Positions 1-2,392 of a DNA stretch of 10,877 nucleotides are shown here, one piece after another. Position 1 is the first letter of the stretch; the number at the start of each line of letters is the position of its first letter. A model generated the notes under the pieces. The model saw only the letters and a program-made list of their open reading frames with translations, had not been told where the DNA came from and searched no databases. This DNA comes from an uncultured archaeon. Lineage in GTDB: Archaea > Asgardarchaeota > Thorarchaeia > Thorarchaeales > Thorarchaeaceae. The stretch covers positions 1 through 10,877 of the forward strand of contig CAZYLT010000037.1 of the NCBI GenBank assembly GCA_964648855.1, written 5' to 3'. A program made the translations under genes and the position numbers.

Positions 1-57
1 AAAAAACCATACTAGTGAAAAAGAGATTCGGAGGTGAAAAGAATTAGCAAAGACCGG

Positions 58-180
58 ATGAGGGCCATTTATGAGCGCATGACAAAGGATCGTGCAGCCC
101 TTGAATTACTGTCAATTGGCATAGTTAGTGGCATTGCCACAGTAGTGCAGCCGCCTTGTGAGGATCCTAGCCCGTTCTAG
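58..180 (+). CDS. Putative 40-aa small protein MRAIYERMTKDRAALELLSIGIVSGIATVVQPPCEDPSPF (alternative in-frame starts: ATT at 43, GTG at 34)
   Basis: Translated by hand, ATG 58-60 to TAG 178-180. Strong SD GGAGGTGA at 30-37. Charged N-terminus, hydrophobic middle, and a C-terminal P-S-P-F-stop matching the P-E-P-F-stop of the two downstream micro-ORFs. Start codon uncertain. Confidence 0.6.
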   Translation: MRAIYERMTKDRAALELLSIGIVSGIATVVQPPCEDPSPF

Positions 181-182
181 CG

Positions 183-276
183 TAGCCTAGACGTGTGTGG
201 GTTCTCAAGTAAAGCTAGCCCTATTGCTATGTGATTCATGTCCGAATCATTGCAGCTAGTATGGGAGCCTAGGTTA
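183..276 (+). other. Predicted long imperfect RNA stem-loop between micro-ORFs
   Basis: Nested pairings read by eye: 183-188/271-276, 199-207/262-270 (9 bp, 3 G-U), 214-219/255-260, 225-227/252-254 and 231-237/244-250, closing loop ATGTCC (238-243). Confidence 0.45.
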
Positions 277-304
277 TCACAATCACGGAAGGAGGAGAAG
301 AACC

Positions 305-346
305 TTGGAGCCCGACCTTGGAGCACCATCACCTGAACCATTCTAA
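305..346 (+). CDS. 13-aa micropeptide MEPDLGAPSPEPF, copy 1 (TTG start)
   Basis: Codons ttg gag ccc gac ctt gga gca cca tca cct gaa cca ttc taa. SD GGAGGAG at 291-297, 7 nt before TTG. Same peptide as copy 2 with synonymous-only divergence. Confidence 0.8.
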   Translation: MEPDLGAPSPEPF

Positions 347-400
347 AAAAACGGAAGGAAACCGAAAAAAAACGAGAGTGACACCCGAATGAAAAAAACG
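345..400 (+). repeat. Three A7-8-CG tracts in the spacer between the two peptide genes
   Basis: AAAAAAACG at 345-353, AAAAAAAACG at 365-374 and AAAAAAACG at 392-400. Confidence 0.55.
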
Positions 401-425
401 AACAACAAGGAGGATGAAAGAAAAT

Positions 426-467
426 ATGGAACCTGATTTAGGAGCCCCGAGCCCCGAGCCATTCTAA
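426..467 (+). CDS. 13-aa micropeptide MEPDLGAPSPEPF, copy 2 (ATG start; in-frame ATG at 414 would add MKEN)
   Basis: Codons atg gaa cct gat tta gga gcc ccg agc ccc gag cca ttc taa. SD GGAGGA at 409-414. Same peptide as copy 1. Confidence 0.8.
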   Translation: MEPDLGAPSPEPF

Positions 468-514: not shown

Positions 515-766
515 ATGATAGGAAATGCAACAGAAACAGCATTCGCAAATTTGATAGCACCTGAAAGCGGAAGAGCAGTTGACCCCTTTGCTGACCCAGA
601 GGTTGTACGCCTAACGGCAGTCAATCTAGAATTGGCAGTGAAGAATTTGATGACTGCTTCAACTCCACCTGAATGCATAGTCCTCACTGCAGATATCTGC
701 TCACATAGGCTGATTGCGAGACCTACTGCAGATGGCGACGTGAGTGTACTAGTGTTCGACGAATAG
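515..766 (+). CDS. 83-aa hypothetical protein, possibly a minimal Roadblock/LC7 (MglB/profilin-like) fold
   Basis: SD GGAG at 503-506 in an A-rich leader, ATG start and protein-like composition. Apparent order beta(ANLIA)-turn(PESG)-beta(RAV)-helix(PEVVRLTAVNLELAVKNLM)-beta(ECIVLT)-beta(RLIARP)-beta(VSVLVF). The coding call is fairly firm; the fold is inference. Confidence 0.75.
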   Translation: MIGNATETAFANLIAPESGRAVDPFADPEVVRLTAVNLELAVKNLMTASTPPECIVLTADICSHRLIARPTADGDVSVLVFDE

Positions 767-949: not shown

Positions 950-2392
950 ATGACGGATATATCCTCAGAAGTCAGTATTCAAAAGGAGGAAAATTTGACT
1001 GATTTTGAAGACGATGTGTCAGTAGATGGATATGGTCAAGACGAAAAGGATGAGCTAGATTCGCAGCAATCGGACGGCGGTCTGCTCCATTCATTGAAAC
1101 TTATTTTATCAGCAAAAAACTATGGCGTGTATTTGATTACCGCATGGATTTTTGGATCTATTGTGTATCTTCAGGCATATCTTAATTTGTATCTGCGTGC
1201 TCTAGGATGGGATTTTGTAGTCATGGGAGTAATGATGTCAATACTAGCAGTATTTGCATCGGTAATGAAATTACTCGGAGGATATGTAGGAGATGTCACG
1301 AACAGAAAGAATCTCTCGGTTGTCGCGATGTTACCGATATCAGTTTTCTATTTCATCATTGGTGTCTTTGTTGACCCATTAATGATTGTTATCGCATTGA
1401 TAGTGTATCAGTCTCACGAAATTGCTAGGAGCGGCTCATCAGCATATATTCTGGAGAACACCCCCAAGAAAGACAGTGGTCTGGCAATGTCGTTATTCAA
1501 TGTGGGGAAGGTCTTTGGCATTGTGACATTGATAATTTTCGGGGCCTCGGTCACTATCTTAGGCTTTACTGAGGCATTCAGATCCATCTTCTTGGTCGCC
1601 AGTCTTATGATATTCTCATGTTCGATTGCTAGAGCAAAGTATCTTGAGTATGATGAGCAAGCTTGTAATGATTTACAAGATAAGTGGTCACTGAAACGGT
1701 TCTTACTGGAGAATAGGAGGGCAGCAAAACTGCTTGTGGCTTCGGTCCCAGGCCTTCTTACAATCGTGATTATGGATGGCATTAGTGATTCGTTTTTCAG
1801 ATTTGGTGCTTTGATATATGCCAATGAAGTATTAGCTATTGATATTTCCGGGATTAATATGATACTCCTTGTATACTCCATGCTTTCCGTCCCTCTTCTT
1901 CTTAAGATTGGGCGTGTATCAGACAAGAGTGGCACAAGAAGAGCGGCATTGATTGTATATTTGCTAATGCCAGTAAGTGCTGCACTATTGATACTTGCTC
2001 CAGTTATTGCATTCTGGGGACCCCAGACGTGGGTACTGACTGCAAACAGCATATATCCGGGACTGGGTGTTATTTTCTCTACTGCATTCATAGCTATAGT
2101 AATGAAATACCTTAACGATGCGTTATGGTATATGGTCCTGCTTACACTTATCCAGAAGAGTCTTCCAGAAAAGGATACTGCAAAAATACTGTCGATTTTT
2201 TGGTTCACAGTGTATGTCTGTTCCTCCATTGGCCCATTAATTGCAGGAGCCATATTCGAATATCTGAGTCCTGCTTTTCTGTTTGGGATTATGCTTATTC
2301 TAAATGTCATAATCTTGGTATCAATAAAGACGGGTCCTTTTGCAAAGAATGACTCACCAGCTGATGGAAATCAAAAACATGTTGTTGAGTAG
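950..2392 (+). CDS. Major facilitator superfamily (MFS) transporter
   Basis: About 12 hydrophobic segments in two halves. Motif-A-like GGYVGDVTNRK and its repeat GRVSDKSGTRR. Acidic N-terminal tail. Alternative in-frame start TTG at 995 with SD GGAGG at 985-989. Confidence 0.9.
   Translation: MTDISSEVSIQKEENLTDFEDDVSVDGYGQDEKDELDSQQSDGGLLHSLKLILSAKNYGVYLITAWIFGSIVYLQAYLNLYLRALGWDFVVMGVMMSILAVFASVMKLLGGYVGDVTNRKNLSVVAMLPISVFYFIIGVFVDPLMIVIALIVYQSHEIARSGSSAYILENTPKKDSGLAMSLFNVGKVFGIVTLIIFGASVTILGFTEAFRSIFLVASLMIFSCSIARAKYLEYDEQACNDLQDKWSLKRFLLENRRAAKLLVASVPGLLTIVIMDGISDSFFRFGALIYANEVLAIDISGINMILLVYSMLSVPLLLKIGRVSDKSGTRRAALIVYLLMPVSAALLILAPVIAFWGPQTWVLTANSIYPGLGVIFSTAFIAIVMKYLNDALWYMVLLTLIQKSLPEKDTAKILSIFWFTVYVCSSIGPLIAGAIFEYLSPAFLFGIMLILNVIILVSIKTGPFAKNDSPADGNQKHVVE

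Follow-up and report, generated by a model that had tools for sequence, protein, structure and literature searches.

Two tandem open reading frames (ORFs) of 13 codons, lying near the start of a 10.9-kb archaeal contig and encoding the same peptide, MEPDLGAPSPEPF, were found to be unannotated, translated micro-genes that are selected at the peptide level, a conclusion that we regard as settled by comparative evidence. The contig (C37), analysed over its entire length and referred to here as the window, comes from a member of the Thorarchaeaceae, a family of Thorarchaeota, which are Asgard archaea; the assembly comprises 3.1 Mb in 62 contigs with 44.7% G+C. The two micro-ORFs belong to a conserved cassette in which they are preceded by an ORF of 45 amino acids (aa) and followed by a gene for an orphan protein of 83 aa (Table 1). 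As to their role, we tentatively favour that of leader peptides acting in cis.

An earlier note on the window, made from its letters only, had described both ORFs as following a GGAGG Shine-Dalgarno (SD) motif and encoding an identical 13-mer with synonymous differences only, and the coordinates and translations were verified. Copy 1 (305-346) reads TTG GAG CCC GAC CTT GGA GCA CCA TCA CCT GAA CCA TTC TAA and copy 2 (426-467) reads ATG GAA CCT GAT TTA GGA GCC CCG AGC CCC GAG CCA TTC TAA. Nine of the 12 post-start codons are unlike, and the 12 nucleotide changes (13 with the start codon), among them Leu CTT/TTA and Ser TCA/AGC, are 100% synonymous. When 12 substitutions were placed randomly on copy 2, the peptide remained unchanged in 0 of 2,000,000 placements, which excludes a chance pair of ORFs. 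The flanking DNA, as had also been stated, is not duplicated: the 30-nt flanks of the two copies are identical at only 13/30 positions upstream and 16/30 downstream, and therefore the two copies are not a DNA repeat. In the sister genome L003 the same two peptides are found, encoded by copies that differ by 13 changes, again synonymous only. Thirteen differences without an amino-acid change, both in the window locus (L002) and in its sister, imply that the whole 13-mer has long been held constant in this lineage. The stretch is carried by four metagenome runs of microbial mats, all of them DNA, with no RNA run listed, and the sole population variant inside a micro-ORF, 449 G>T in copy 2, is a synonymous change of CCG to CCT. 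Copy 1 also holds, at window positions 302-324, a 9-nt internal direct repeat (CCTTGGAGC x2) with SD-like GGAG motifs. A second TTG in copy 1, at 318, begins a His-rich frame of 24 codons.

The comparison set consisted of 66 distinct loci, 63 of which reached far enough upstream for micro-ORFs to be counted. A search of the DNA upstream of homologues of the 83-aa gene, as proposed in the earlier note, found at least one micro-ORF in 63/63 loci spanning at least 16 genera, with one or two per locus and 69 micro-ORFs encoding 61 different peptides in total. Their length was 11-15 codons in all 63 loci, the start was ATG in 66/69, a GGAG motif lay 8-13 nt ahead of the start in 69/69 and the stop was TAA in 56/69, compared to 25% of the long ORFs in this genome. 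The distance from the micro-ORF to the start of the 83-aa gene was 32-63 nt. At residue -2, Pro was present in 61/61 unique peptides, with all four codons (CCA, CCT, CCC and CCG) in use, and the last residue was always aromatic (Trp in 45, Phe in 14, Tyr in 2); Glu at -3 and Pro at -4 were each found in 42/61. The proposal that the peptide is under selection and that no DNA repeat is involved, and hence that the micro-gene is translated and functional, is thus supported by four results: the paralogues differ synonymously only, the ORF signals are kept in 63/63 loci, the proline at -2 is written with four codons and the population variant at 449 is silent.

Regarding composition, the peptides contain 29% Pro and 21% Asp+Glu, with basic and aliphatic residues nearly absent. 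Among residues 2-11, Asp, Glu and Pro numbered 4.9 on average in the micro-ORFs versus 1.69 in long ORFs, and at least five of these residues were present in 66% of the micro-ORFs versus 2% of the long ORFs of the genome. Between close relatives, the ratio of nonsynonymous to synonymous change (pN/pS) was 0.85 for the N-terminal part of the micro-ORFs and 0.35 for their last four codons, compared to 0.16 for the 83-aa gene and 0.10 for the 45-aa ORF, and the 13-mer differed by 4-7 residues where the 83-aa and 45-aa proteins differed by only 0-3. This contrast and these N-terminal bursts of change argue that, family-wide, selection maintains the reading frame, the signals for translation, the composition and an end of Pro-aromatic-stop, but not the exact N-terminal sequence. 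The constraint on the 13-mer described in the earlier note therefore holds in part: the whole peptide is maintained in the genus of the window, whereas across the family the N-terminal two thirds are almost neutral, so that strict conservation of the entire 13-mer is a trait of that genus and not of the family. Co-variation of the micro-ORF end residue or of the sequence bursts with the 83-aa and 45-aa proteins was sought and none was consistent.

Two micro-ORFs per locus were found in two genera, that of the window (L002 and L003) and one including L013, L019, L057 and L061; MLNPHPLSPDPTPW is the orthologous locus in this second genus (loci L013 and L051). In such two-copy genera, the peptides within one genome are identical or 1-2 residues apart, and orthologues of congeneric species differ more. 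In the L013-type genus the two copies are near-identical also as DNA, with 2-5 differences, which fits a recent conversion or duplication.

The motif P-x-P-F-stop ends only 28 frames in the 3.1-Mb genome, and three of these lie within the same 470 nt of the window, the third being the ORF at 34/43-180, whose ending had been correctly recognised in the earlier note. When this genome was searched for tail-bearing ORFs, multi-core ..PEPW precursors and similar micro-ORFs, only two doubtful matches were obtained, and both were dismissed as chance: MPDQDPCPPF on contig C1, which lies antisense within an ORF of 362 aa, and MIESSWPPEDPDWPWSPF on contig C32, which has no SD.

The 45-aa ORF shares this type of tail, with a consensus of QPPCEDPxPF. 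Its SD, GGAGGTGA, is fully complementary to the 16S 3' end over 8 nt, and its non-AUG start sits 5-6 nt after that SD; an in-frame ATT, ATC or ATA is found 6-7 nt past GGAGGTG in 52/52 loci. As 1-nt indels put the GTG within the SD into different frames relative to the ORF from locus to locus, this GTG is not the start, and the ORF of 48 aa that ORF finders begin there was rejected as wrongly started. Over the full length of the 45-aa ORF, third-position entropy was 1.22 versus 0.49 and 0.28 for the other positions, and the codons from the ATH start to an internal ATG, with 1.05 versus 0.56 and 0.36, likewise evolve as coding. A near-cognate start kept across a whole archaeal family is unusual. 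The AlphaFold2 (AF2) model of the protein (pLDDT 77) shows one long helix at residues 3-32 followed by a disordered tail, and the helix, with a hydrophobic residue every 3-4 positions in a reading by eye, is amphipathic. Searches of Pfam and NCBIfam gave no match for this protein even at E 10, and a search with the family profile gave 31 matches, in which the named organisms were all Thorarchaeota or Promethearchaeota and no functional names appeared. Locus L082:1-1956 lacks a recognisable 45-aa ORF, and its micro-ORF, MVPVPGEDPLPF, is similar to the tail of the 45-aa protein (..PPCEDPLPF), a hint that the micro-ORFs derive from the 3' end of the 45-aa gene.

Small hairpins were detected at the stop codons of both kinds of ORF. 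Over the stop codon of the 45-aa ORF, a stem of at least 5 bp was present in 55/61 loci, compared to a mean of 36.7 and a maximum of 46 in 200 shuffles, and this stop is TAG in 49/61 loci versus 39% genome-wide. The interval from the micro-ORF stop to the SD of the 83-aa gene contained, in 37/63 loci (L004-L081), a GC hairpin of the form RCGG-loop-CCGY, the shuffles giving a mean of 3.3 and a maximum of 8. The median distance of this hairpin is 10 nt from the preceding stop and 6 nt from the SD that follows, both distances being equally tight, and compensatory changes of its outer pair were observed in 8 sequences. Its putative counterpart in the window, after copy 1, is uncertain because it has only 3 bp. 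The existence of the genes, the selection on their peptides, the composition, the terminal motif and the fixed position together with the hairpin are all shown by these data.

The stem-loop at 183-276 proposed in the earlier note was indeed present in the minimum-energy fold, although without energetic support, as the region 178-304 folded no better than shuffled sequences (z -0.48). Rfam gave no match in the window or in six long relatives, and no tRNA or tmRNA was found nearby. Those relatives in which a long spacer separates the 45-aa ORF from the micro-ORF (A4: L008, L016, L030, L033 and others) carry a near-invariant block of about 55 nt, CGTTGCTGG..GGTTGGTATGG..CTCTGCAGTGTGAG, and also a long-range helix in which GGTTGGT is paired with ACCRACC; block and helix may be an undescribed RNA element, and Rfam has no match for them.

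The gene for the 83-aa protein was present in 35/36 genomes of the family and in 0/25 outside it, and the public records that contain it are mostly titled Candidatus Thorarchaeota, the rest being Promethearchaeota, Hermodarchaeota or archaeon. The cassette is thus a core feature of the whole family of genomes and not a patchy cluster. A profile search of 1.84 billion proteins with the 83-aa protein returned 8 cluster representatives, each of them at E<=1e-10, and nothing weaker or more remote; Pfam and NCBIfam gave no match even at E 10. A feature search of the ESM Atlas gave no usable match. As judged from these searches, the 45-aa and 83-aa families appear to be confined to Thorarchaeota, without a match to any known family. 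The AF2 model of the 83-aa protein (pLDDT 83) is of alpha/beta type, combining a disordered N-terminal part with one long helix and a sheet of three strands. Structure searches with this model gave weak and mixed matches, among them a PAS domain (Z 6.2), MbnC (Z 4.9) and a cluster of unnamed phage proteins (TM 0.62). Matches of Roadblock/LC7 type, a fold brought up in the earlier note, were also weak (Roadblock/longin and MglB at Foldseek E 0.2-0.5, Z 3.7-3.8); the model has a single helix and three main strands, and the Roadblock topology is alpha-beta-beta-alpha-beta-beta-beta. Such weak matches of a predicted fold support no functional assignment.

Gene order was read from those loci with sufficient sequence on both sides. 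At the upstream end of the cassette, two divergent winged-helix proteins (about 357 and about 488 aa, the second carrying an AsnC-type helix-turn-helix) are encoded head-to-head with the operon, followed by a leader of several hundred nt, the 45-aa ORF and, after a spacer of 89-266 nt, the micro-ORF. In the genome of the window, the 488-aa regulator is single-copy and is the lone gene on a contig of 1.6 kb (C62); the query used for the 357-aa gene gave no match in this assembly. On the 3' side, the 83-aa gene is followed by genes for a transporter of the major facilitator superfamily (MFS), endonuclease III, sometimes a GT4 glycosyltransferase, and seryl-tRNA synthetase (SerRS); SufBD and an upstream luciferase-like monooxygenase are also among the Pfam families of neighbouring genes. 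The MFS gene follows the 83-aa gene in every locus except L083, a complete genome. However, the block is collinear family-wide out to the SerRS gene, so this adjacency is weak evidence of a functional link.

The leader of this operon also varies within populations. In three of the runs (X1, X2 and X4) a second strain was detected with 89% identity over positions 39-296, in which 12/14 differences within the 45-aa ORF are synonymous by a manual codon count. This strain leaves the match at 296, at the SD of copy 1, and goes on with ATGGACGACCCC, a different micro-ORF starting MDDP. In the source mats, a pair of equally deep unitigs (549 and 551 nt) converges at window position 30, and in about 16/66 loci, including this contig, the contig ends no more than about 550 nt upstream of the 83-aa gene. 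A repeat upstream was considered as the cause of these breaks and rejected, as no second copy was present in two complete genomes. These data suggest that the operon leader is dimorphic or hypervariable within populations, and such polymorphism is probably the reason why the window begins where it does.

Table 1. Features of the cassette and its surroundings in the window.
Feature	Positions	Strand	Basis or remark
Perfect SD of the 45-aa ORF, GGAGGTGA	30..37	+	Near-invariant in relatives
45-aa ORF, ATT start, tail QPPCEDPSPF-stop	43..180	+	Coding signal over full length
Hairpin TCTAG-N6-CTAGA enclosing the TAG stop of the 45-aa ORF	176..191	+	Seen also at the same place in L003-L083
SD of micro-ORF copy 1, GGAGG	291..295	+	Read from sequence
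Micro-ORF copy 1, 13 codons, TTG start, TAA stop, product MEPDLGAPSPEPF	305..346	+	Translation
Weak hairpin CGG-N7-CCG after copy 1, likely counterpart of the RCGG/CCGY hairpin	352..364	+	Read from sequence
SD of micro-ORF copy 2, GGAGG	409..413	+	Read from sequence
Micro-ORF copy 2, 13 codons, ATG start, TAA stop, product MEPDLGAPSPEPF	426..467	+	Translation
83-aa orphan gene, follows every micro-ORF; SD AAGGAG at 501-506	515..766	+	ORF and SD
MFS transporter, next gene downstream, link to the cassette uncertain	950..2392	+	Pfam MFS_1, E 7e-26

With respect to function, the reading that we favour, though at less than even odds, is that the micro-ORFs act in cis as hard-to-translate or termination-arrest leader peptides. 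The stretch rich in Asp, Glu and Pro right after the initiator Met, together with the invariant Pro-aromatic-stop, would make the ribosome prone to slow, abort or terminate slowly, in a manner that may depend on the state of the translation apparatus, such as aIF5A activity, Mg2+/polyamines or the supply of prolyl-tRNA. By occupying the end of the micro-ORF, ribosomes would then control how accessible the SD of the 83-aa gene is, 32-63 nt farther downstream and beside the GC hairpin. That ribosomes stall, that they sense a signal and that the 83-aa gene is affected are proposals by analogy. This reading is favoured because the conserved features are those that a ribosome would sense near the peptidyl-transferase centre, because the micro-ORFs keep their place ahead of the 83-aa gene and stop codons keep their small hairpins, and because the ORF next to them has a near-cognate start, as regulatory ORFs typically do. 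Moreover, no other ORF in the genome has the tail or is of the micro-ORF type, which points to a local device rather than to a widespread docking motif. As expected for a leader, a short translated ORF lies directly upstream of the 83-aa gene, co-transcription being assumed, and as in arrest peptides the constraint is concentrated at the last residues, notably the penultimate one.

Three known systems were compared with the micro-ORFs, and all of them are best taken as analogies and not as homologues. The 14-aa peptides PepNL and NanCL of Escherichia coli arrest at their own stop codons and regulate the gene downstream, the penultimate residue being decisive for release (PMC11890864). These peptides (and TnaC and SpeFL) have in common with the micro-ORFs that a very short ORF, led by an SD, directly precedes another gene. 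Conservation likewise peaks beside the stop, above all at the penultimate residue, and a bias in stop codons and small hairpins near the stop and the downstream SD complete the resemblance. In contrast, the host of the micro-ORFs is archaeal, there is no sequence similarity, tandem copies occur and the end motif is common to the neighbouring 45-aa protein; the penultimate residue here is Pro and the last one is aromatic, whereas in peptides of this type Pro comes last, and the micro-ORFs are known from sequence alone.

In E. coli, N-termini rich in Asp, Glu and Pro lead to abortive translation, and MgtL (MEPDPT...) senses in this way (10.1101/2021.02.02.429294; PMC12856214). The peptide of the window, with its MEPD, has a comparable acidic and Pro-rich start after Met, and a transporter gene lies downstream of the cassette much as mgtA lies downstream of the MgtL leader, although the functional link is putative here. 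The read-out of MgtL, in contrast, takes place through Rho and alternative RNA structures, and none such was seen at this locus, where the region 286-530 folded with z +0.97 and only the small hairpin of the relatives was found. Archaea are not known to have Rho. MgtL is also without the conserved Pro-aromatic end, so the likeness is one of composition and not of homology.

In AZIN1, the upstream conserved coding region (uCC) is initiated at AUU, carries a PPW motif at a conserved Pro-rich C-terminus and needs eIF5A for its translation (PMC2811004, PMC9788402). The AUU, AUC or AUA start and the ..QPPCEDPxPF end of the 45-aa ORF resemble the uCC of AZIN1 and ODC, as does the ..PEPW end of most micro-ORFs. 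However, scanning ribosomes queue at the uCC, whereas initiation here is SD-led and each ORF has its own SD; the downstream genes (83-aa orphan, MFS) do not belong to the polyamine pathway, and the micro-ORFs are ATG-started and mostly without adjacent prolines.

Several observations weigh against the leader reading. The proline stalls known so far require neighbouring prolines or a Pro in last place, whereas the prolines of the micro-ORFs alternate and the final residue is aromatic. The same tail ends the 45-aa ORF, which encodes a conserved amphipathic helix (pN/pS 0.10) and so resembles a functional protein that carries a docking tail, and this favours a binding motif. The 83-aa gene has a strong SD of its own, and the A-rich stretch after the micro-ORF stop could hide an internal promoter. 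The RCGG/CCGY hairpin leaves the SD of the 83-aa gene uncovered and is missing in 26/63 loci, including the position after copy 2 of the window, and the A-rich micro-ORF region was less structured than shuffled sequences when folded. Finally, the 13-mer that stays constant in the genus of the window, despite saturated synonymous divergence of the two copies, is predicted neither by a model of composition only nor by one of a C-terminal anchor only.

The closest rival is that of a trans-acting peptide with a free tail, which we consider somewhat unlikely. Here the Pro-aromatic-COOH end, set in an acidic polyproline-like stretch, would be a docking motif that is present both as the tail of the 45-aa protein and as free copies, and the micro-ORF peptides would occupy or compete for a pocket, candidate sites being the 83-aa protein or the divergent winged-helix regulators. 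The sharing of the tail between a well-conserved helical protein and the micro-ORFs (QPPCEDPxPF vs. PxPEPW/F) speaks for this possibility, and a fixed C-terminal anchor, a kept composition and a free N-terminal part are the usual signature of a short linear motif. The strong SD and ATG of the micro-ORFs and the weak start of the 45-aa ORF imply that free tails would outnumber the tailed protein. Also in line with a free tail are the identity of paralogous peptides within a genome, locus L082, which lacks the 45-aa ORF yet has in MVPVPGEDPLPF a micro-ORF that resembles its tail, and the two winged-helix proteins (one of AsnC type) encoded head-to-head with the operon. Against it, the bursts of change in the micro-ORFs are not accompanied by a consistent change in the 83-aa or 45-aa proteins, and the tail is found on no other protein of the genome. 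Trans-acting cytosolic peptides of 11-15 residues are rare compared to leader peptides. Moreover, a start rich in Asp, Glu and Pro cuts the peptide yield in bacteria (10.1101/2021.02.02.429294).

A precedent for such docking could be sought in bacterial single-stranded DNA-binding protein (SSB). Its tail, ..DDDIPF, is a C-terminal docking tail on an OB-fold protein with many partners, and an acidic stretch, a Pro-Phe end with a free carboxylate and a disordered tail are features in common. Unlike the SSB tail, the motif here is restricted to this one locus and also occurs as stand-alone peptides. A hub of the SSB-tail type was discarded, as the genome contains no other tail-bearing proteins.

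It is unlikely, though worth stating, that the peptides are trans-acting and possibly exported signals whose Pro-aromatic-COOH end would be read by a lineage-specific receptor, the 83-aa protein or a winged-helix protein being the candidates. In its narrower form, as a pherotype-like signal that is exported, perhaps through the adjacent MFS transporter, and read by such a receptor, the proposal is decidedly doubtful. The hypervariability of the N-terminal part between close relatives, combined with the identity of paralogues, would agree with a pherotype, and so would the second mat strain, which diverges exactly at the micro-ORF, the MFS gene after the cassette in all but one locus and the regulators encoded alongside. 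However, the peptides are acidic and of 11-15 residues, with no signal sequence, pro-peptide or hydrophobic segment, and the MFS adjacency, absent from L083, may be mere synteny, given the collinearity out to the SerRS gene. In the upstream 357-aa and 488-aa proteins only winged-helix domains were recognised, with no tetratricopeptide repeat or known peptide-receptor domain, and the single copy of the 488-aa regulator in this genome does not help the case either.

Much less probable is a precursor of a ribosomally synthesised and post-translationally modified peptide (RiPP) or of a peptide-derived cofactor, with the 83-aa protein as its recognition or chaperone element. Several short, precursor-like genes with a conserved end are indeed present, and the 83-aa model weakly matched MbnC of the methanobactin MbnABC complex (Z 4.9). 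Nevertheless, this reading is very unlikely because Pfam scans of ten ORFs of the window and of the upstream genes detected no family known for modifying peptides, and because the terminal residue varies between Trp, Phe and Tyr; the cassette, furthermore, is core to the whole family of genomes and not patchy. Lastly, a chance pair of ORFs or a noncoding DNA or RNA repeat, for which small size and nothing more could be adduced, is already refuted by the comparative data, that is, by the purely synonymous divergence of the copies (0/2,000,000 by chance), the SD, start and stop kept in 63/63 loci, the unrepeated flanks and the lack of an Rfam match or a stable RNA fold.

Among the four roles suggested in the earlier note, those of a regulatory upstream ORF or arrest peptide and of a short-linear-motif ligand now lead, the pheromone keeps a small share and the RiPP has become unlikely. 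The leader acting in cis is favoured and the free-tail ligand is its close rival.

Genes of 11-15 codons escape annotation, and a search of the literature on micropeptides and upstream ORFs in Thorarchaeota and Asgard archaea found nothing on this locus. Control by leader or arrest peptides has hardly been described in archaea, and nothing was found in the literature for the Asgard archaea, the closest known relatives of eukaryotes. In this context, the cassette offers a compact, family-wide test case that combines a Pro-aromatic-stop micro-ORF, a conserved AUU-started ORF and hairpins at stop codons. If stalling takes place, it would allow sensing of aIF5A, Mg2+ or polyamines, of the kind found in the eukaryotic uCC or in bacterial MgtL, to be tested in Asgard archaea. 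If the peptides act free, few of the trans-acting gene products known from archaea would be as small. If they are signals read by a receptor, the hypervariable N-terminus and the identical paralogues would constitute a pherotype signature, pointing to a system of peptide communication or recognition in Asgard archaea in which the 45-aa protein would be a tethered form of the ligand. Under either of the two leading readings, three unannotated or mis-started genes are to be added to the annotations of Thorarchaeota.

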